A stretch of DNA of 64,000 nucleotides from Albugo candida (lineage: Eukaryota): contig JBDOQK010000005.1 of assembly GCA_040437565.1 (NCBI GenBank), forward strand, positions 744,001 to 808,000, written 5' to 3'. A program made the position numbers and the translations under genes. The notes under the pieces were generated by a model that was not told where the DNA came from, made no database searches, and saw only the letters and a list, made by a program, of their open reading frames with translations. Of this stretch, positions 33,636 to 48,966 are shown one piece after another. Position 1 is the first letter of the stretch. The number at the start of each line of letters is the position of its first letter.

Positions 33636-36600
33636 ATGGATGATAAAAGTACGACTACCGTTGACTATGTTCGCATATCTGCCAAATGGAAGCGTGTGAT
33701 TGGCAGTATATCGTTAATGAGCTTTTGCATCGAAATACGACTTCATTCCTTCACATTGGCACTTTAACAAGTAATCGCGAATTTAGACTCTGTACAGCAC
33801 TCAGAAGACGAAAATGCAATCATTATCATACTATCGAGCGATGTGGAGCATTCCGCACACATAAACGATAGCGAAAATGCTTCTTTTTGGGAGATCATCC
33901 GCGCGAAATTGGAAGCAACGCATATGTCTCGCACGCAAATGCGATTGCATTTTTGGTTGCAAAATCTTCCAAATGCCAAATACGAAACAAATGAGTTACA
34001 TCTCGTCTACCACGTCGCAAAACCGCAAAACACGCAGCTCATGGCTTCTGACGTTTTTGATACGCTGACGCATAATCACGTCACAATTTTTCTCATTCAA
34101 CTCCAAACTGTATTCAACTCCCATTGTCCCTCTTTGCAGATGCGCTGTCCCAAAGAAACACTAATTTGTCAACGAGAAGCGCTCAATTCTTCTGTTCGAG
34201 TCTCCTGGCTTCATCCATCATACAGTTTAGTTATGACTTGGTATCGAGCCTTCCAGCCGTTGGATCAGTACAACATCGACTGCAGGGGACAGATAGCGTA
34301 TGAGATCTACTCAGCATGCACTCTAAAGTCTTCTCTGCCATTGAGTCTTTTATTATTGCTCGCGAGATGGACACATTGTCATCCGATTGTCATGCGCGAG
34401 GTGGAGCCTCTTATTCAGAAAAAAGCTCGATACTTGCACCAGCGTCATCGCAAAAGCATTCAGAAACTGCTCGGTTCCTGTGAACTCTTTGCACCGAATA
34501 GCGTTTCAACAGCTTCGATTTTCCATCAATTGGAATGTCCGATTCTATTAGCAATCTGTGAGAGCGACAATCAAAGGCGCGTAAGACTGTCACAGTGTCG
34601 ACTTTGGGACCGCCAGAAGCACTTTTACAAAACAAAAGGGATGGACGCCTGGAGTAAACATCACATTCCCTGTGGTATTTCCGGTTCTTCGTTGATAGCA
34701 CAGCATTATGCCCGTACGTTTGTGAAGTAGGCAAACAACCCAAGTGTCTAACGGTATGCTCAGGCCTAGCCATCGAATTCCTGACTTGTGCTGCAAGCAA
34801 GCGATCGTCTGCAGAGACACTACCGCCGTCACTGCAGCCCAACTGCTATATTTTCGAGGCCGCGAGTGGATCATGCAAGTTTCTATCGGCGTTTTTGCAC
34901 CATTTCTTCACCTTGGTCGACTTGCAACATGACGATCGGGACCTATTGATACCTTGCGTAATTGCCAGTGACCTCAGTGAACAAGTGATCACCTCTCGCC
35001 TGAAAATGACCTGTTTTCAGAAATATCTTGAAAAAAATCAGTTGGACTTTGTGATAATGGACACGAATGCAATAATGCGAGAGAAGGACACAAAGCGATT
35101 CTACCGAATTTACCAGCAGCGATATTGGTCATACGATACGCTCGATCCAGTGTTCATCATCGGCAATTACTTTCTGGACTCCCTCCCTTCGGACGCATGG
35201 ATTCTGCAGCACGATACTGCGTGCACGCTGTATGAAACATGCGTTTCTGCCGACGTCGAATCTGCAAAAGACGTGGAATGTACACTACGGCCTTATCACG
35301 GAGACGCTTACGAGAATCCATTGATTGAAAAAACATTTCGGAATGTAGTGAGTCGAGCAATCGCATCGAAACCCAGCCTTTCATTGTCCCTTATTGTGTT
35401 TCCAATCCATTCTTTGGAGTTTCTGATTCAGATTTTGGGTATAAAAGCAAACTCTCCATCACCCCGAGGCTTTATTTTCGGTGACACGCGATGTTCTTTC
35501 AGAGATCCGTTCAAATCGTTCCCATACATTGAGCTTCCACAACTCTCTCCGACACCCGATTGCTTTTGTCTAGCGGTCGACTTTGAAATTCTCCAAGCAT
35601 TCTTCGACGAGTTGAGAGATATTCCAGCGTGGCTCAGACTTGATAGCAATGTCGCTAATGACACATTCGATATCTGTACGGGATCAATTCATGTCGAAGA
35701 ACGCGATCGTGTCAGAGTGTATACAACCTTACAGAGTACCATTTCTCCATGCGACTTCGATCTTCTTCACGATTTGCTGTTACATGGCACATTGAATGGC
35801 ATTTTGTATGATTTCAAACTCGAGACGCTGTTGGCATTGCTAATTCACAGCGGTTTTGATTACGAATTGTTCCTTCTTGTGCAATGGAATTTGTATCGAA
35901 AGTGGAAGCAGCAACAAAATGAGCAAATAAGAAAACGGATCTGTGAGATCGGATGGAAATGCTATCAAATGCGCTACGAAATGGACTCCAATGCCGTGAT
36001 CTCTGTCGGGAGACAAAATGTGCAAATGACACGCTGGCTAAAACGTNNNNNNNNNNNNNNNNNNNNNNNNNNNNNNNNNNNNNNNNNNNNNNNNNNNNNN
36101 NNNNNNNNNNNNNNNNNNNNNNNNNNNNNNNNNNNNNNNNNNNNNNCTCCAAGCATTCTTCGACGAGTTGAGAGATATTCCAGCGTGGCTCAGACTTGAT
36201 AGCAATGTCGCTAATGACACATTCGATATCTGTACGGGATCAATTCATGTCGAAGAACGCGATCGTGTCAGAGTGTATACAACCTTACAGAGTACCATTT
36301 CTCCATGCGACTTCGATCTTCTTCACGATTTGCTGTTACATGGCACATTGAATGGCATTTTGTATGATTTCAAACTCGAGACGCTGTTGGCATTGCTAAT
36401 TCACAGCGGTTTTGATTACGAATTGTTCCTTCTTGTGCAATGGAATTTGTATCGAAAGTGGAAGCAGCAACAAAATGAGCAAATAAGAAAACGGATCTGT
36501 GAGATCGGATGGAAATGCTATCAAATGCGCTACGAAATGGACTCCAATGCCGTGATCTCTGTCGGGAGACAAAATGTGCAAATGACACGCTGGCTAAAAC

Positions 36601-36768: not shown

Positions 36769-38567
36769 ATGGAGAAGCGCTTGACAAAGTCATTGAGTAC
36801 TGCTGGGAGGAATCTCGTCTCAGAAGCATCGACAATACCGGAGATCTTATCAATAGAACATGTGTCATCGGCTACTCGCTTACTGGAAAAACGACGGCAA
36901 ATGTTTGAGGTCCAAGATGCTTTAGACCTCCAGAAAGAAGAGTATGCCAGACAAGAAGTAAGAGCAAGTGCTGGGTATGCTTTGGGCTTAGTGAATTCGA
37001 TCTGTAGGACTCCTTCGCACGACGCGAAGAAATGCTGCGACGAAAAGATCTAGAGATGCAGGAATCTTTGGTCAAATTCAATACGTTCCTCGAAGTACGC
37101 ACGCAATTCGTTCGTTCCGACGAATTTGATCAATTACTGACTTTCGTTTAGGAAAACGAACTGAAACGTAATCGCGCAAACAAACGCGCGAATGAAGAGA
37201 TCAAGCAGCGTCAACACGAAGAAGAAGTGATTGAGAGTCTGAAGAACACTCTGACGCAATCTCTACTCGAGAAAGAAAAGCTTGCAATTCAGGTCAAGAA
37301 AAATCTCAAGTACTTACGATACCTGGAAACCGTTCAAGAAGCCGCACCCGAAGACTTCCCCGAAATATCAGATCTCGTGAATCGATATCGCACGCTTTCG
37401 GATACCAATCGCGACTTACGACAACTACAGAGTCGGAATGACTCTGAAAACGATAAGAAACGCACTGATTACACAACTTTCCAAAGAGAACGAGCGAACG
37501 AGATTCTTAGTTGCAACAATCAAATTGCTGCCTTACAGCACACACTCGAAGAGAAAGAGGCTCATCTCATACGTCTCCAGCAAACGAGTGACAATAACGC
37601 TCGTTCCACGACGCAAAAGACTCTGGCNNNNNNNNNNNNNNNNNNNNNNNNNNNNNNNNNNNNNNNNNNNNNNNNNNNNNNNNNNNNNNNNNNNNNNNNN
37701 NNNNNNNNNNNNNNNNNNNNNNNNNNNAATCGCGCAAACAAACGCGCGAATGAAGAGATCAAGCAGCGTCAACACGAAGAAGAAGTGATTGAGAGTCTGA
37801 AGAACACTCTGACGCAATCTCTACTCGAGAAAGAAAAGCTTGCAATTCAGGTCAAGAAAAATCTCAAGTACTTACGATACCTGGAAACCGTTCAAGAAGC
37901 CGCACCCGAAGACTTCCCCGAAATATCAGATCTCGTGAATCGATATCGCACGCTTTCGGATACCAATCGCGACTTACGACAACTACAGAGTCGGAATGAC
38001 TCTGAAAACGATAAGAAACGCACTGATTACACAACTTTCCAAAGAGAACGAGCGAACGAGATTCTTAGTTGCAACAATCAAATTGCTGCCTTACAGCACA
38101 CACTCGAAGAGAAAGAGGCTCATCTCATACGTCTCCAGCAAACGAGTGACAATAACGCTCGTTCCACGACGCAAAAGACTCTGGCATTGGGACAAATCAC
38201 TATGGCCATTGGTAATTTACTGCAACGTGCAACAAGCGGAACTCACGGAAAGCTTCTCAAACATGTCGATGGACTTGTCAAAGGTTTAGAGTCGTCAAAT
38301 GGAAGTAACAGCTCCGAAATCGATATTGTAGCGCGAAGTATCAAAGCAATGGCCGATTTGGATGTCGTAGCAGCTTACATTATCGACTTTACAGCCATCG
38401 TGCAAGATCGTCAGGAATTCCAAAAGGCACAAAAGAAAGCAAACCATACAAATTCGCAAACGCTACATCCAGAAGTAGGACCAGGAATCATCTCTATAAA
38501 ATTACCAGGAGCGTCCAGTAAACTCCGATCAAATAGCGCATATTCAACCGATAGTGTCAAGAACTGA
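36769..38567 (+). CDS. CFAP73: CFAP73/CCDC42-like (DUF4200) flagellar coiled-coil protein, multi-exon, with assembly duplication
   Basis: ATRLLEKRRQMFEVQDALDLQKEEYARQE|DSFARREEMLRRKDLEMQESLVKFNTFLE|ENELKRNRANKRANEE, and YLETV..DFPEISDLVNRYRTL. Confidence 0.85.
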
Positions 38568-39649: not shown

Positions 39650-42600
39650 TCAACTGGTTAAAGCTTCCGTTTGGACATGAGAAACGTACTTCCAATTTCG
39701 TCCTTGTCGAATAATCTCCACTGTCGGCCAGTAATGATAGTCGCTTTTGAGAGTGAATACTTTGGGCTTTGTGTTGATTGCAACTGTTTTGATACGAACG
39801 GGATCTCCATTCTTCAGTTGTGTCACAACTTGTAGCAAGGCATCCAGTGTTCCAGTCGGCGTATCATTTACTTCTACGATCCAAATTGTCGCACGTAAGC
39901 CGTATTTGTGTGCTGGAGAACCATAACACCACCGAGATATGTATGCTCCTCCCCCAATTTCAGGGATATAACCAAGGCTTGCAACCGCGTAATGCGGAGG
40001 CTGGATCACCAAGCCGCACCACAAAAGTATCCGATCGGTTCCCGTAGCCGACAATTCGGTCAATTGNNNNNNNNNNNNNNNNNNNNNNNNNNNNNNNNNN
40101 NNNNNNNNNNNNNNNNNNNNNNNNNNNNNNNNNNNNNNNNNNNNNNNNNNNNNNNNNNNNNNNNNNTTGTGTCACAACTTGTAGCAAGGCATCCAGTGTT
40201 CCAGTCGGCGTATCATTTACTTCTACGATCCAAATTGTCGCACGTAAGCCGTATTTGTGTGCTGGAGAACCATAACACCACCGAGATATGTATGCTCCTC
40301 CCCCAATTTCAGGGATATAACCAAGGCTTGCAACCGCGTAATGCGGAGGCTGGATCACCAAGCCGCACCACAAAAGTATCCGATCGGTTCCCGTAGCCGA
40401 CAATTCGGTCAATTGGACATTTATTTTCAATTCCTTATGATCACGAAATATGGTAAGCGATACCGAGTCGTATTCTTGCCAGGTCGTTGCTTTCTCCACA
40501 TCAATATCGCGAACTACAGTCTTCTCATTGATTGCGAGGATCAAATCGCCGCTTTGAAGCTTGCTGGAGGCATCAGTTCCTGCAGCACAGCGTTTGACAC
40601 CCAACACTTGACGCTTATCTTCGTAAATCCCTTCCATTTGTTGTATCCATGTGTCAGGTAAACCAAGACCCGATCGAGCTTTGGAAAGAGGGTACGTGAG
40701 AAGCTGAAGCGGTAAAACTCGCACGGACGAAGGGACCGACTTTGTATGACGTATATGTGCAAGAACTGGCTCAAGAATTTCCACACTCAGCCCTCGAAAT
40801 ACTTCTCTTCTCCCAGTGTTATCTTGGTAGCTGAAAGACAACCACAAAGCGTTTACATTTCCATCGGAATCCATAAAGACGCCACCTACAGACTTTGTGA
40901 TACGATCGAAATGGATGACTTCCACATTGGAAGCTTTATATCGTGGTGGCTGAAAATCCCGTAATACAAGACGATCCACTTTGCTTACAACCGATTTTGA
41001 CGTCACTACAGTCCAATTACTGCTCAAGCCGATAAATTCGGTCGTATCGCCGACATTCAGTGGCAATTCAGCAAATTCTGCCGATTTGAGTTCGATGGTG
41101 CCAAGCTCTTTTGGGTCATATTGAACGATCGAGTAATTGTGAATTGGATGGACGAAAACAACTTTTGCCTGAATCTCAACCGAAGCAGCAACAGTGACCA
41201 TTACGTCTCCCAACGCAATCGGAACGGTATTCTGATCGACTAGAATATATCCTTGCGTGCTGTCGATAACGAGCCCAATGCCGTGGTAACTTGAGCTGGA
41301 AATACCATCAATCATGTATGGAAGATCAAAGGCCACCATAACCAAAGAAAGAAGCAGTTTCTTAGCCGAAGAAGAGCCACCAGGGAAGCCTAAAGGTACA
41401 GGCGTAAAACTCGGCAGTGTGATTTGCGGTGCCGACAATGCGCCAGTTGATTCACACAAATCAGGGATCCATAGTCCATTCCGATCATCACGAGTTGATA
41501 ATTGCACTGGAAACCACAATCTGGACATTGTAATGAACGCGGTACGGATCCGATGGCGATCGCGAATCATGAAATATCGAAGTGTTGTGCGCTTTCCGTC
41601 GGGTAGGGAAGCAATCACTTGTACGAATTCCTTCAAAGTGGGTGTCGACTTGCCATCAAGAGCCGTGATTATACAAGGTTGCATCAAATGTGCCCGCATG
41701 AACATGTGTCCAGTCTGCGCCATATACACGCCACCGACCGGTAATGAAGCATTTCGAGCCTGTTGATACGACAAAGAATGCACGATACCGCCTCCCACTT
41801 CGAGATATTGATGCGGTGTGATGGCATGCAAATCTTGGACTTGGAGTAAAGTCGAGTTGAGCGAATCTCCGCGTTGGAATTGCACACTCACCGAGTCGCT
41901 CACATGCGTATCCAAATATTCTTCAATCTCCAGAAACGATGTGACATACTTTCCATCGAGTTGGATGATAATATCTCCCGTCTGTAATTTCCCATCCGCT
42001 GGCCCGATTTGAATAACTTGGTCGACAATAAGCATACCCGTTTCTTTCGGAAAGATCAGGCGGACTTGAGCTTCGATCGGTGGAGGCAAACCAAGTCGAC
42101 GAACTTCATCGAAAGCTGCGTGCTTGAGAATCAATTGGATTGTACCACGCGTCACGTGTTGCCCATTTTGTAACAGCTTTAGCGCCCGAACGACTCGATC
42201 GAGTGGTAAGTAAAAGGACGACGCCGCTTTTTTAGCTCCTCCAGCATTCAATGCGATCGCATTCCCATCGATATCCAATACGGGCGATCCACTAGAGCCT
42301 CCAGAAGTACTGCAGCACAATTATCAGATGAGTTACGACGTTCCCAGTAATTGCTTGCCTGCTTGCTGCAGCATAATAAAATGTGTTAAAGTCATTGTAT
42401 GTCGTCGATCCGTAACAAGGAGCCTCGCGATCCAATTTTGCCAAAATTCCAGGCAAAATCGACAATTTCTCTCCAGCATCATTTCCGACCACACGGATCT
42501 CCACACCAACTACACATAAAGCCTCAAATTGCGCTGAAACGCGGTTAGCTTCAAACCTTTTGCTCTCTCGGGATGGAGAGGGATCTCATGAAGCTTTAGG

Positions 42601-43138
42601 AAATTGATTTTGCTCGGATCGAATTGGTAAAAGCCAAAATCGTGGACGGGGTCTCTATCACACGAGGCTTTTTACGACATCAAAGACAATCAAAAGCGTC
42701 CATAACAGACCTATAAATTGGCTTTAGATCTACTTCTTCTTTGCTGAGAAAGATAGCGTCGGCTATAACCGGTCCCGGAGTCACCACATGGCGATTTGTA
42801 AGCACAATGCCGCGCTTTAGATCGACAATAAAGCCTGTCGCGACGCTAAATGACGCTCCATTTCCGTCAAAAGCGCGTACACTCAGTAACCGAATGCTTA
42901 CTATAGCTCTTATACACTTTTCGAGGCTGTGTAGCCAACGTTGTGACTCATCTGACTCCTTGGAACATGAGATCAAAGGCTGCGCGTGAGCAGCTGTTTC
43001 CAAGTCTGCAATCGGTGTCATCGATGACGATACATCGGGGTCGATTTGTATATCATCTGTTTCATATTGTGCCGAGTTTTGTACAGTTTCCTCGCTTGGA
43101 GCGGCGCACTTCAAGTCATATTCCAACTCTTCTTTCAT
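39650..43138 (-). CDS. NMA111: Nma111/Ynm3-like HtrA serine protease (tandem protease-PDZ modules), multi-exon
   Basis: [14 protein letters not shown] (His), DPVHDFGFY (Asp), GGSSGSPV (Ser), [18 protein letters not shown] regions and a second degenerate protease module. Confidence 0.93.
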
Positions 43139-43287
43139 AGCGCATCTATAGATCCGAGGTACGCTTGACCTATATTTACCGATCTTTATGTATAAACACA
43201 ATATTGGAGACGCAAATGCGAAAAATTAAGAAATTGGCATCGAACTTTTGACTTGACAGTAAAGTTACTCGATTCATTATTACGCGA

Positions 43288-44898
43288 TTAGTGATTATGT
43301 TGATGAGGTGTAGTCTCCGATTCCTGATTCATTGATCCGCGAGATATCGCATCCTCACGTGTGCGTAGTTTTGATTCCTCGGTTGTTCCTTCACTTTCTT
43401 TCGTGTACTCTTTTTTCGGTGCCGCTTGCACTGCTTCCTCGTCTCTGTGGACATTTTCTACAAACAAACACTCAGTTTTACGTGTAAAAGCGTCTGTCAG
43501 GACACACCTTTCACCCCATCACTTGATTTCGGTTCCTCCACTTTCTTTTGGCTCGCGTTGTCGGTGGAAATGCGACTTTCCTCTTCCGCTTTGCCGAAAA
43601 CAGTCTGTTTCCATTCATTTTCAAATTCGTCCATTTCAGCACCAGATAGGAACGTATGCTGATCGCCTTTTTCATTCTTTGACTTGCGTTTCCACACCGC
43701 TTTTACCTTCTTATCTCCAATCACACGCTCGTGTACCGCTTTCATACGCCCCGCAGAGTCCTCATACCGTCGANNNNNNNNNNNNNNNNNNNNNNNNNNN
43801 NNNNNNNNNNNNNNNNNNNNNNNNNNNNNNNNNNNNNNNNNNNNNNNNNNNNNNNNNNNNNNNNNNNNNNNNNGGTTGTTCCTTCACTTTCTTTCGTGTA
43901 CTCTTTTTTCGGTGCCGCTTGCACTGCTTCCTCGTCTCTGTGGACATTTTCTACAAACAAACACTCAGTTTTACGTGTAAAAGCGTCTGTCAGGACACAC
44001 CTTTCACCCCATCACTTGATTTCGGTTCCTCCACTTTCTTTTGGCTCGCGTTGTCGGTGGAAATGCGACTTTCCTCTTCCGCTTTGCCGAAAACAGTCTG
44101 TTTCCATTCATTTTCAAATTCGTCCATTTCAGCACCAGATAGGAACGTATGCTGATCGCCTTTTTCATTCTTTGACTTGCGTTTCCACACCGCTTTTACC
44201 TTCTTATCTCCAATCACACGCTCGTGTACCGCTTTCATACGCCCCGCAGAGTCCTCATACCGTCGACGTACACTCGAGATTTTGCGACCAGAATCGTCCA
44301 AGACTGTAGAGTTACTGTAAGAGTAGCTCGAGTATGCGAGATCAGCATCGTCTCTTTTCGGTGAGCTTGTAGATTGCTCGGGTTTCGATTGCTTCTGTGA
44401 AGACTGAGGCAAAATATCACCAAAGAATTCATCGTCATCAGGTGGTGAAGGATTTATAAAAATTCCACTGGCTGGAGGTCGAAATTCCAGAAGCTGTTTT
44501 GCAAGAAGATCAAAATCCATGAGAGACTGCTCCATAGACACCATCGGATGCCAAAAGGAAGGATGGACTCGATCCCATATCGAGTATGCGGATCGATTGT
44601 GTGAAGAGCGAGATGCCAAAACTGGCGTGCAGCGAGAAAGTCTGTACAAATTCCCAANNNNNNNNNNNNNNNNNNNNNNNNNNNNNNNNNNNNNNNNNNN
44701 NNNNNNNNNNNNNNNNNNNNNNNNNNNNNNNNNNNNNNNNNNNNNNNNNNNNNNNNNGAGAGACTGCTCCATAGACACCATCGGATGCCAAAAGGAAGGA
44801 TGGACTCGATCCCATATCGAGTATGCGGATCGATTGTGTGAAGAGCGAGATGCCAAAACTGGCGTGCAGCGAGAAAGTCTGTACAAATTCCCAAGCAT
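43288..44898 (-). CDS. Myeloid leukemia factor (MLF)-like protein with a mitochondrial-type presequence; last exon 43288-43457; two assembly duplications inside
   Basis: N-terminus MLGNLYRLSRCTPVLASRSSHNRSAYS is R/S-rich with no acidic residues. Core YSSYSYSNS..RRRYEDSAGRMKAVHERVIGDK..KRKSKNEKGD..DEFENEWK resembles the MLF domain. GT-AG intron 43458-43507 adds a ~56-aa last exon in frame. Confidence 0.65.
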
Positions 44899-45044
44899 TT
44901 CGCTTGTCGCTGAGTCTGAAATCTCTCAAATGAATACGCAAAGATGTAAACTGCAGAGCAACTGACACATCGACAACGGCTCTGTCTCAGACAGAGAACG
45001 AAAACAGCAAAACGACACGCCGACGCAAAAGAATCTATTAACAT

Positions 45045-45332
45045 TTAACTGGTATGGATGGGCGTTGTCTCGGCTTCTTGGTTCATAGAACCTCTGGAAA
45101 TGGCTTCTTCCCGTTGACGTATTTCCGCTTCTTTTGTCGCGCCGTCTGCGGCTTTAGTTGTTTTCTTCGGCGGTGCATTTTTAACTGCTTCTTCGTGCCG
45201 ATGGACAGACTTGTGCGAAATTGTTTGATCGCGCAGTTTACTGTCAAAGTCGCTTGATTTAGTTGCGAAATGCCGGACGGGAATTCGACATGAGAGCTTG
45301 CACGTTTGCTTTACTGCGATTTGAGACCACAT
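45045..45332 (-). CDS. 95-aa hydrophilic protein with a mitochondrial-type presequence, paralogous to the last exon of the adjacent gene
   Basis: MWSQIAVKQTCKLSCRIPVRHFATK (R-x-F-A cleavage-like), followed by VHRHEEAVKNAPPKKTTKAADGATKEAEIRQREEAISRGSMNQEAETTP. Confidence 0.75.
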   Translation of the reverse strand: MWSQIAVKQTCKLSCRIPVRHFATKSSDFDSKLRDQTISHKSVHRHEEAVKNAPPKKTTKAADGATKEAEIRQREEAISRGSMNQEAETTPIHTS

Positions 45333-45508
45333 CTTCCGATTCGTGCCCTTTGACTCGTTTCAAAGAATGAGAGGAAATTGAAATGTCGAGACATTCTGAG
45401 ACACAGATAATGAGAAAAATCAGAACAGCGACTAAATCTATTGGTTTTGCTTAAGCGACGTCGTATTGAGATTTTGTAACAGAAAAAAACAATTGTCTCA
45501 TCGACCTT

Positions 45509-48500
45509 TCAATTCTGAAGATGATTTCCACATTTCCGACAAAAGCGAGCGACGCGCGGATTCGATGTCGCGCATTTGGCGCATTGTGCTTGACTCGAAG
45601 CATGTGCTTTTGTATCACTTGACGTCGATGGTGTAGAGGAAGCATGTGGTTTTGTATCACTTGATGCCGATGGTGCAGAGGATTGCTGAGCTGGTTTTCC
45701 GGTCGGGTGCACTACCAAATAAGAGCCCGGGACGTATCCACGCTTTTGATTCATTTCAGCATACCACCATCCATCGGGGTCCTAGCACACGTATCAGACG
45801 AATGCTGAGAAAAAGGCTTGCTTTGAAAACGTGTACCTTGCGTAGAATTTGTAGTAAATCTCCAGGTCGAATTGTGAGCTGAGAAGAGTCCTAAGAGCAG
45901 AATGAGATTCGACAGTCTTTGGGTCAGGATTGAGATTCGCGTACCTCTGCGACAAACTCATACGCTGCTGTTCCAAACAACACAATATCTGGGTCGGTTC
46001 TAGAGATCACTTGAGAAAGGCATTCATTTCGATGTGTTTGTGATCGTACATTGCTTGCTGCACTTGGACTCGTATCAATTCATGTTTGCAGCCTGCACAA
46101 ACAACGTTTCCAAGGTGCTCGAAAAAGCTTTCTAAAGGATCATTATAGCGGATGTAAACGAGTCGATTGATCAGCGCACCTGTGAGCGAAGCATTGCAAC
46201 GATAACAAACAAAACAATTTGGATGATAGAGACTCTCGAGCGCTTTGATTACTTTGCCTTTCAGAGCCTGTAATGCAGCAATACGTGAGGATAAGTGATA
46301 CAAATACATTCACAGATTGAAACCTTTTCACATCGAACACATTTTTTGCCATAACGATTCTGATAACACACTTGATGGAATGCCATTCCTTCATGTTCCG
46401 CGTAGCCTTCGCTCTCTGGAATGACACGCTTACATTCGCTGCATTTGAAACACTACATACACGACGATAATCAAAAATTGATGACCGATTTCGTCATAGA
46501 ATGCAACTCGCCTCAAGATGGAAATAGTGATCGAGAGCCGACATTGCTTCGCCTTGTAGTATCTGATTGCATCCAGCGCATATTTCACACGCAATTGATT
46601 GATCTATGGTGTCTTCTTCCTTCACGACTGAAGTCGTTCGTGCCATTCCTTCGTCTCGTTTCTGGCTGGAGGCAGTCATCCGATCAATATCGGAGATATC
46701 GCTGAGATCAGAAAATCCCGAAACGCCTGAAAGGCGATCCACTGTGGCGCCACGCACTCGGGAAGTGCCATTTTGATCGTGCATTTTTATATTTTCCATA
46801 TCCAATACCTCAGAGACACGAAATGAATCACGATCATTGCCGAAAATCCGTGAATCAAAATCTCCATCCAAATTTGACAAGTCGGAAAGTCGATCGTCAT
46901 GCACGAATGTGGAGTTTCTTGCGGCGAGATCAAACTCACCCAGTGAAGACGTATTACTAGAGCCTCGAGCACGTGATTCAATAGTGCTGTTGCCGTTTAA
47001 CGGTATGGATTTCGTGTTGCTTGGAAATGGAGGCGGCAAAGAGCTGCTTTCCTTGTCGGGTCGAGATTCGACAATTTTCGCATTTTCAGTGTCTTTCCTT
47101 CTGTGGGAACTCGTACTTGTGCGTGCTCGTTCTGAAATTTTCTTGCGACGCTCGGAGTCCTTTACTTCTTCTTCCTTCCGTGTTTTTTCCAGGACTTGTG
47201 ATTGTTTTGCAGATTCAATTTTTTGCCTCTGAGCAAGTTCCTCTGCTTGCTTTTCTGCCTCCTTCTGAGCTACTTCCCGCTTGGCTCGCTCTACGTCGAA
47301 ATTGGATGATAGTGATACGTCTCCATAGTATGGTTATACGCTGTAATGTTACCTCGAAGGACGCGGCAATTCACACAGACGATGTCTTTTCCTTCCAACT
47401 CTGATTCCGCTACCAGATAAACGTTAAATTCGTAAGAAGGCTCATTCTCGAGTCGAGTCGATTCCACATTACCTTCAGTGATCTGCTTTGCACAGATCGA
47501 GCACTCGATACAAAGCTTATGATATGTCTGATTTCCAACTCGATATATTCGACCAAGAATTTCCTACACCAGCGCAGGTCAAAAGTCAGTATCCATTCGT
47601 CGAAGCGGACTTTGCAACCTTACTTTCTCGCAGACGCTACATTGAGTGATGTTCTCCGCACAATNNNNNNNNNNNNNNNNNNNNNNNNNNNNNNNNNNNN
47701 NNNNNNNNNNNNNNNNNNNNNNNNNNNNNNNNNNNNNNNNNNNNNNNNNNNNNNNNNNNNNNNNGTCTTTTCCTTCCAACTCTGATTCCGCTACCAGATA
47801 AACGTTAAATTCGTAAGAAGGCTCATTCTCGAGTCGAGTCGATTCCACATTACCTTCAGTGATCTGCTTTGCACAGATCGAGCACTCGATACAAAGCTTA
47901 TGATATGTCTGATTTCCAACTCGATATATTCGACCAAGAATTTCCTACACCAGCGCAGGTCAAAAGTCAGTATCCATTCGTCGAAGCGGACTTTGCAACC
48001 TTACTTTCTCGCAGACGCTACATTGAGTGATGTTCTCCGCACAATCCACGTGATAAGCCTGCATAATGCTTCACACTCAAATTCGACGACGCGTACGCGA
48101 AAGATGTTCCTACTTTTCTTCGAATCAATGTAAAATCCTCATCTTCTTCAATCGGTTCTCTGCAGCCTTTACAGAGAAGACACTAGCATTCAAACACAAT
48201 TATATTACTTCACTGATGCATTGCATTTGTATGCGTACGATTTCGTGAAATATTTGCTCTTTTGCGGTCTTTGTACGTCCCAAAATCGTCTCATTGCAGG
48301 CAAAACATTTTTTCAATTTACGAGGAATCGGTTTGCCAATACTTCTGGGTGAGCTCGGCAGAGCAGCATGGCTCTGAAGTAAATCATTTCGAGATGATTC
48401 TCCTTCTTGTTGATTTCTCAACACTTCTTCTCGCTGTTTAATTTCCAAGATCCGTTTATTAGACGCTTCACGAGCAGCCAGAATGACAGCTTCGTCCAAT

Positions 48501-48966
48501 CCCGATGGATTTTCCAATTGGACATATGTTCCAGGCACAAGACCTTTGACCATTTCTTTCTTCACAAGCCACCATCCGTCAGCATCCTATCGAAGCCAAA
48601 GCATCCATTAGCGCTTTTATGTGACTATATACCGTCTTGGCTCACCTTTCGAATGACTTCAATTGTATCGCCTTTTTTCAATGGAATTTGTGTGTCGGGA
48701 TCCTACATCACAACTCATTTGACTGTTGCAAAATAATTCATTCAAAGCCAATTGCATACCTGAGGAATGAAATTGTAGAGTGCTATCGCCTTTTCTTTGG
48801 GATCTGGCGGTACTACAGGTCGGACATTGTTACTTGGAGAGTGTGAGGTGGCGATCATTGTAATAAAGTGAGCACAAGTCACTGACCGATGTCTATCGAA
48901 AAAAGCAGCCGTTTGAAGCACATTGGAAGCGTATTCGGAACGTGTTACATCATCGGAACTAGACAT
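45509..48966 (-). CDS. Adaptor protein SH3-LIM-LIM-coiled coil-LIM-LIM-SH3-zinc ribbon, many short exons
   Basis: Manual splicing: SH3 AIALYNFIPQ|DPDTQIPLKKGDTIEVIRK|DADGWWL..GLVPGTYV; four LIM domains (CFAC..FHEI|CLLCKGC; CSVCEK|..YHKLCIECSIC; CAGC..FHLE|CFKCSEC; CVRCEK|..YHPNCFVCYRC); second SH3; CAKC..FCRKCG. Confidence 0.88.
45597..45680. repeat. 42-bp coding tandem duplication (14-aa unit x2)
   Basis: gaagcatgtgcttttgtatcacttgacgtcgatggtgtagag followed by a near-identical copy. Encodes SAPSASSDTKPHAS / STPSTSSDTKAHAS on the minus strand. Confidence 0.9.

Follow-up and report, generated by a model that had tools for sequence, protein, structure and literature searches.

Proteins of the myeloid leukemia factor (MLF) family are ancient and widespread and have no agreed biochemical role; according to the consulted sections of PMC11527388, Mlf occurs in the stramenopile, alveolate and rhizarian (SAR) group, is built of a beta-sheet core with flanking helices and disorder, and binds Hsp40. 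For the fly protein, the consulted sections of PMC5549762 report that the central domain alone binds the class-B Hsp40 DnaJ-1 and that the termini are dispensable. MicroProteins, the second described system that comes close to the locus studied here, are small and carry a single element with homology to a portion of a larger relative (PMC9638782 and PMC4807768, in the sections consulted). Here we analysed two neighbouring genes of Albugo candida that lie at 43288..45332 of a 64,000-nucleotide stretch of DNA, referred to below as the window (assembly GCA_040437565.1, contig JBDOQK010000005.1, positions 744,001 to 808,000): an MLF-like gene, whose last exon encodes a conserved C-terminal tail, and a stand-alone gene just upstream of it, which encodes a 95-residue small protein ending in a free copy of the same tail. 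The pair was first noticed in an earlier reading of the sequence (the original prediction) as a two-gene module around an unrecognised motif.

The MLF-like parent resembles the MLF family in its central conserved block, ...SYSYS.S...RRRYEDS.GR.KA.HER...W.R...G...EFE..W..T.FG.A, and in its structural model, where helices flank a sheet of five strands and the ends are disordered, as in the architecture given in the consulted sections of PMC11527388. It differs from that family in that the proteins grouped here give no match to Pfam PF10248 (Mlf1IP; 0/28 scanned) and are much expanded in oomycetes, and in that the sections of the literature consulted on animal, fly and Giardia MLF mention neither a presequence-like leader nor a ...QEEETTPP tail, both of which the oomycete proteins show. 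The small protein is similar to microProteins in being 95 aa long, in carrying a single element that is 64% identical to the tail of its neighbour, and in falling with it into one Albugo clade, whereas known microProteins come mostly from transcription-factor dimerisation domains and are nuclear; the element here comes from the disordered or helical tail region of a presumably chaperone-associated protein and is accompanied by an apparently organellar leader. MLF-like proteins and small proteins derived from partial duplicates are both known, and what is new at this locus is their combination, which is modest and lineage-specific. The best overall explanation, to which we assign a probability of about 0.5, is that the motif is the tail of a branch of MLF-like proteins and that a free copy of it, born in Albugo, acts beside its parent in the same compartment.

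The small-protein gene consists of one exon of 95 codons and a stop at 45045-45047 (45045..45332, minus strand, as for all genic features given below) and is the ortholog of AlNc14C1G34 of Albugo laibachii. An in-frame stop precedes the first ATG, with which its open reading frame (ORF; 45048-45332, 95 aa, P0001) begins, and the last 54 residues read SVHRHEEAVKNAPPKK...AISRGSMNQEAETTPIHTS. The protein consists of a presequence-like leader of 27 residues (45252..45332, assigned by residue composition), a conserved linker of about 15 residues and the tail, in which the free copy of the 50-residue motif occupies residues 42-91 (45060..45209), as delimited by BLASTP, alignment and codon comparison. 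This motif is the only conserved recognisable element in the protein, which at 95 aa falls within the microProtein size criterion of <20 kDa. A word-indexed search with the small protein returned a single relative, the product of AlNc14C1G34 (F0VYN2, 94 aa, 77% identity), and a search of the ESM Atlas gave a best score of 0.88 to unnamed fungal clusters, which we took as noise, with an Atlas model of predicted local distance difference test (pLDDT) 0.36. The structure prediction for the small protein is mostly of low confidence, with a helix predicted at residues 62-82 at modest confidence. The gene lies 146 nt from the ATG of the MLF-like parent, on the same strand, and 176 nt from the stop of the gene upstream. 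In both genes of the pair, strings of the CTCATTC / TTCATTT type stand 30-50 nt before the ATG (45360-45385 and 44925-44935), that of the small-protein gene accompanied by CAATTTCC; these strings appear to resemble the initiator and flanking promoter elements of oomycetes.

The fused copy of the motif lies in the last exon of the MLF-like gene (43288..43457, with its stop at 43288-43290), which was delimited from its ORF, public models and tblastn. Positions 43291-43455 read NVHRDEEAV..., that is NVHRDEEAVQAAPKKE...AISRGSMNQESETTPHQHNH (P0002), and both peptides on which the original prediction was built are indeed encoded where it had placed them. The exon is preceded by a 50-nt GT..AG intron (43458..43507), the removal of which links ...GTG AAA G to AA AAT GTC... 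in frame, and an unspliced reading would terminate at ...KGVS*. The proposed splicing holds, with the same junction, ...GVK|ENVHR..., in two independent public gene models (P0005 and P0006). Exon 1 was recovered in pieces: its 3' part, contiguous with the intron and encoding the last 88 core-region residues (43508..43773; P0006 residues 94-181, 100% identity); its middle part, with the conserved core including SYSYSNS...RRRYEDSAGRMKAVHER (44267..44657); and the start codon 44896-44898 with the next base (44895..44898), from which the reading begins MLGNLYRLSRC.... With assembly duplicates collapsed, the gene has 2 exons and encodes 276 aa, a length identical to that of F0VYN3 of A. laibachii.

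Searches with exon 1 identified this A. laibachii protein, AlNc14C1G35 (F0VYN3, P0005, 276 aa), and the A. candida model ABG067_001234 (P0006, 237 aa), which is 100% identical to the exons in the window. Both hold the spliced junction ...KENVHRDEEAV... and end ...ETTPHQHNH, so that the exon, originally described as hidden, is already annotated in both Albugo species. The free-plus-fused arrangement is real and is found in A. laibachii too, where AlNc14C1G34 and AlNc14C1G35 bear consecutive locus numbers. Translation of ABG067_001234 begins with an internal Met (MVSMEQSL) that lies 39 codons 3' of the ATG from which F0VYN3 is read; because the 39 residues upstream of it are conserved between both Albugo species and presequence-like, this public A. 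candida model is probably N-terminally truncated, starting 39 codons late. Both genes are already annotated as hypothetical proteins, and the tail has no family name. A literature search for AlNc14C1G34/35, F0VYN2/3, PITG_10360-10363, PITG_10365, PHYSODRAFT_554226 or oomycete myeloid leukemia factor found no pertinent publication.

In a BLASTP comparison, the free and fused copies aligned without gaps over small-protein residues 42-91 and exon residues 1-50, with 32/50 identical (64%) and 43/50 positive residues (E=7e-22). At the DNA level 92 of 150 bases are identical, and 22 of the 32 residues that agree between the copies are encoded by different codons. Across the 50 aligned codons, the proportion of synonymous differences (pS) is 0.915, which is saturated, and that of nonsynonymous differences (pN) is 0.230, giving a pN/pS of about 0.25. 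AISRGSMNQE and ETTP, noted at the outset as invariant, are so in all four Albugo copies. Between A. candida and A. laibachii, the small protein retains 43/50 identical residues in the motif and 27/41 in its N-terminal part, and the parent 49/56 in the fused tail and 153/181 in the core, which means that the free tail is constrained to the same degree as the core of the parent. Because pS is saturated, pN is low, the codons differ and 32/50 residues are still identical, the two copies are an old duplication under purifying selection, and neither a recent copy nor a gap artefact, in agreement with the original prediction; with only 92/150 bases shared, they also fall outside the gap artefact described below.

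The distribution of the motif was assessed with a hidden Markov model profile of 54 positions (A2), built from 10 tails and scanned with HMMER against 1.84 billion representative proteins. Ten proteins matched at E<=0.001: nine are C-termini of MLF-like proteins of 201-1073 aa and one is the Albugo small protein, and at this threshold no stand-alone tail copy outside Albugo was found among the 1.84 billion. Among the other relatives, proteins of Globisporangium polare and some unnamed records end, for example, in ...AAPDKE..EA.GVTKEAK..SRDEAIAQGSKTQEEETTPP.Y, and those of Phytophthora, Peronospora and Plasmopara in ...ERKETIQKMSKRQEEETTPPQFTS; the tail is predicted to form a short helix followed by an acidic end, QE(E/A/S)ETTP(P), and the residues P, T, E, R, I, S, Q, E, E, T and T are invariant in 10/10 motif rows. 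Pfam gave 0 families at E<=10 for the small protein, the exon and exon 1; across the 10 motif rows it gave no LEA (late embryogenesis abundant) family and a best E of 0.049, in 1/10 rows, to an unrelated family, and the motif profile matched nothing in the PDB (best E 0.75). The motif is therefore in no named family, as had been suspected, but it is not the orphan module first proposed: on this distribution it is the conserved, ancestral C-terminal tail found throughout one branch of an MLF-like family that is expanded in oomycetes. P0019 and P0023, two relatives that keep the tail but are very divergent (branch length 2.65 in the core tree described below) and lack the usual WD.V..S.WHPM start, may extend the range of the tail beyond the sampled oomycetes.

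The placement of the parent gene in the MLF family is indirect. A family profile built from 14 members recovered 232 of 2554 candidates at E<=0.001, of which the best 120 were listed. All named relatives among these best 120 of 232 are oomycetes (Phytophthora, Pythium, Globisporangium, Peronospora, Plasmopara, Bremia, Aphanomyces, Lagenidium and Albugo), none of the 120 carries a precomputed Pfam domain, and two from Pythium oligandrum are named 'Myeloid leukemia factor' by UniRef. Some members have locus tags that follow one another directly, for instance PITG_10360-10363 and PITG_10365. In the ESM Atlas, the three closest clusters are of oomycetes, with scores of 0.87-0.88; they have 193-198 of 256 features in common with the query, and contain PF10248 in 22%, 45% and 58% of their members. 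A PDB search with the family profile gave a best E of 0.14, and a Foldseek search of the PDB with the P0005 model returned no match at E<=0.001. The AlphaFold2 (AF2) model of P0005 (61 sequences; mean pLDDT 70.4) shows a five-strand sheet at 112-175 with pLDDT >90 (strands 112-121, 127-136, 142-150, 153-161 and 169-175), helices spanning 34-58 and 179-209 and, at modest confidence (block-mean pLDDT 56-77), a helix in the tail at 247-268; it fits the described Mlf architecture qualitatively, in a comparison made by description. The label 'MLF-like' given in the original prediction thus has only indirect support, from the Atlas clusters, the UniRef names and the model architecture, and none from Pfam PF10248.

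In a census of 126 family proteins, a core anchor was found in 108, of which 21 combine the tail with an N-terminal extension 15 or more residues long, and 74 have neither and start MF(S/G)TWD. Two further proteins carry the tail with a short N-terminus (truncated models starting MQ.RRTIRM), and 11 carry an extension without matching the motif regex; these 11 comprise two near-misses (P0032 and P0039), five read-throughs before an internal MFS(S/T), one 509-aa double model and three short extensions. A looser regex found the tail in 36/126 family proteins, and P0024 and P0110 also carry it, as judged by eye. Within the family, the tail was shown by these models to be linked to the N-terminal extension. 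When the core alone was used for a tree, with tails cut (61 rows, unrooted: all tail-bearing proteins except P0022, with 24 picked from about 90 tail-less ones), the 24 tail-less rows formed one clade (80/81), and the tail label required 2 changes, a number that 0/500 shuffles reached. Oomycetes have, on this evidence, expanded MLF-like proteins into two classes, one of which carries an organellar-looking leader and an undescribed conserved tail. Of 91 tail-less family members, 24 end in another short acidic motif, ...E(A/P)TPME(E/M) (..PM[EDQA]; P0026 and P0062-P0105). A degenerate form of the tail in the tail-less class was sought by hhalign against 32 tail-less proteins and rejected (probability 0.19%, E 0.32, 5 columns).

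The extensions of the tail-bearing branch are 23-43 residues long and basic. Those of 19 tail-bearing proteins contain 105 K/R versus 3 D/E in 618 residues, and the remainder of the same proteins contains 707 K/R versus 985 D/E in 5096 residues. A matrix-targeting presequence typically comprises N-terminal 20-40 residues that are rich in Arg, Lys, Ser, Ala and Leu and free of acidic residues. This composition was found in the small protein, in the A. laibachii ortholog of the parent and in the 19 extensions: the first 27 residues of the small protein include 5 basic and no acidic ones in A. candida, where the first acidic residue is at position 28, and 7 basic and no acidic ones in A. laibachii, and the leader of the A. 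laibachii ortholog of the parent has 5 basic and 0 acidic residues in 28. As far as residue composition goes, both N-termini of the pair are presequence-like, as originally predicted.

To place the duplication in time, a motif tree was built from 36 rows and 51 columns, leaving out P0037, P0038, P0053 and P0071 as redundant or truncated models. The four Albugo copies formed one clade (100/98), in which the fused pair (97/88) was separate from the free pair (98/92), indicating that the duplication occurred in the Albugo lineage before the A. candida / A. laibachii split and without later gene conversion. Detectable homology begins at exon-2 residue 1, which is compatible with a partial duplication that broke within or close to the intron; the small-protein gene may alternatively stem from a whole-gene copy with an internal deletion. 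A derivation of the linker from the end of exon 1 or from the intron, considered for the shared strings AAATCAAG.GA and KSSD, was not upheld, with 357/2000 shuffles reaching the score, and is unproven. The locus offers a clean protist example of a small protein born through exon-level partial duplication.

The preferred reading, in which the Albugo-born tail copy acts beside its MLF-like parent, can be set out as follows. In the Albugo lineage, before the species split, a partial duplication would have copied the tail exon to a position directly upstream of its parent, and this copy would have become a 95-residue gene with a presequence-like leader, a linker and the tail. From their composition, both proteins would go to the same compartment, most likely mitochondria, where the free tail could engage the target of the parent tail, be it another protein or the core of the MLF-like parent, and might tune or compete with the parent in a microProtein manner, possibly in an Hsp40/Hsp70 chaperone context known from work on animal and Giardia MLF. 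As the termini of fly MLF are dispensable, the tails may be accessory and lineage-specific, which would suit a partner-recruiting or regulatory role. In its most specific form, an organellar microProtein would be imported with the parent and would compete for, or add to, the tail-binding site of an MLF / Hsp40-Hsp70 module; this version, drawn from sequence features, we regard as possible but improbable. If it were true, the ...R.EAI..GS..QEEETTPP tail would be a new partner-binding motif of oomycete MLF-like proteins. The free tail would in any case be a natural probe, and whatever binds it a candidate partner of the tail-bearing MLF-like branch.

Several results weigh against this reading. 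PF10248 matched 0/28 family proteins at E<=10, the 28 being the three proteins of the window, 14 family members and 11 more, including both UniRef-named MLF proteins, which leaves the assignment to MLF indirect, and with it the chaperone context that it brings. Residues 1-26 of P0005 have an AF2 pLDDT <50, and the presequence reading draws on composition. When the leader of the small protein was compared with that of the parent, the score was reached by 31/2000 and 42/2000 shuffles for the A. laibachii protein and by 1732/2000 and 1544/2000 for the A. candida protein, and DNA similarity 5' of the motif was at chance (357/2000 and 797/2000 shuffles); because this upstream similarity is not significant, the leader may have been either inherited from the parent or recruited. 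Finally, the idea that the conserved tail residues lie on one helix face was rejected, with 4198/5000 shuffles reaching the observed 100-degree power.

An alternative placement of the contact is that the tail is autoinhibitory or docks on its own MLF core, with the small protein binding the core in trans and inhibiting or activating the parent. The equal conservation of tail (49/56) and core (153/181) between the Albugo species would suit this arrangement, as would the restriction of the tail to proteins with this core (9/9 long matches) and the 146-nt distance between the two genes on the same strand. However, the tail helix was modelled with a block-mean pLDDT of 56-77, and the tail-less family members (the clade of 24) work without a tail; we consider docking on the core rather unlikely.

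The basic N-terminal extensions could instead be nuclear or nucleolar signals, or mis-called starts, in which case a shared organelle would not be required. Consistent with this, the NCBI model of A. candida starts 39 residues downstream, at MVSMEQSL, and animal MLF1 shuttles between nucleus and cytoplasm, as stated in the consulted sections of PMC9939472. Against it stand the presence of extensions on 21 independent tail-bearing models, the 105 basic versus 3 acidic residues counted in 19 extensions, and the direct start of the tail-less clade at MF(S/G)TWD. The composition is, moreover, classic for matrix-targeting signals by established knowledge, and a non-mitochondrial explanation of the extensions accordingly seems doubtful to us.

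It is also conceivable that the small ORF is a non-functional remnant of partial duplication that was called by annotation pipelines: it is short, matches no family and is not mentioned in the literature searched. The ORF is, however, intact in two species, with the motif (43/50) better conserved than the leader (27/41); its pN/pS against the paralog is about 0.25, with silent sites saturated, and the free copies are monophyletic apart from the fused ones (98/92), so that they predate the divergence of the two species and have been retained through it, making a dead relic unlikely on the sequence evidence. The suggestion of the original prediction that the tails are LEA- or hydrophilin-like bulk protectants without a specific partner is rejected as very unlikely, for although the Albugo sequences analysed are hydrophilic (grand average of hydropathy (GRAVY) -0.96 for P0001 to -1.77 for P0002), carry 31-36% charged residues and are largely disordered or of low confidence in the models, they fall at E<=10 into none of the families in Pfam, LEA included (P0001, P0002), have a glycine content (2.1% in P0001, 3.2% in P0004 and 3.6% in P0002) below the >6% that, together with high hydrophilicity, defines hydrophilins, and show a position-specific invariance (10/10 rows) and strong purifying selection that point to a specific contact.

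The locus is disturbed by assembly artefacts. The window contains fifteen 100-N gaps (for example 36047-36146, 37628-37727, 40067-40166 and 47665-47764), of which 11 are flanked by exactly identical repeats of 56-458 nt; of the remaining four, three lack such a repeat and the last extends off the window. The gap-flanking duplicates are unmerged contig overlaps. Two of them interrupt the MLF-like gene. The first (43774..44266) comprises the gap 43774-43873 and an exact repeat, 43874-44266, of 43381-43773, and includes a copy of the intron and a false partial copy of exon 2, the third in the locus, at 43874-43950; the second (44658..44894) comprises the gap 44658-44757 and an exact repeat, 44758-44894, of 44521-44657, which is a false repeat of the 5' end of the gene. 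In the 64 kb, tblastn found no further motif copies beyond the two genuine ones and the false partial copy. Such duplicates will yield false exon or domain repeats in any gene that they cut, and the smaller annotation lesson of the locus is that two scaffolding duplications mimic extra exons.

Upstream of the pair lies a gene with LIM, SH3 and zinc-ribbon domains (45455..48795), identified by a domain scan and by alignment with P0022, a fused model of 1073 aa from another record. Residues 77-786 of P0022 map to 48795-45455, the LIM/SH3/zinc-ribbon gene, and residues 800-1073 to 44853-43294, the MLF-like gene, which places the small-protein gene between two genes that adjoin in that record. P0022, joining LIM/SH3 and MLF-like parts, and P0026 (509 aa), with two MLF-like copies, look like run-on fusions and are probably annotation errors. 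Directly downstream of the MLF-like gene, 39960-43225 (minus strand) encodes a trypsin-like/PDZ protease (PDZ_1 2.3e-26, PDZ_6, Trypsin_2 1.7e-6), which is interrupted by the gap 40067-40166 and which we take to be Nma111/HtrA-like. A connection exists between animal MLF1 and the HAX-1/HtrA2 axis. Of these two axis components, HAX-1 is the one named in the consulted sections of an MLF1 review (PMC9939472). The position of the protease next to the MLF-like gene may be a coincidence.

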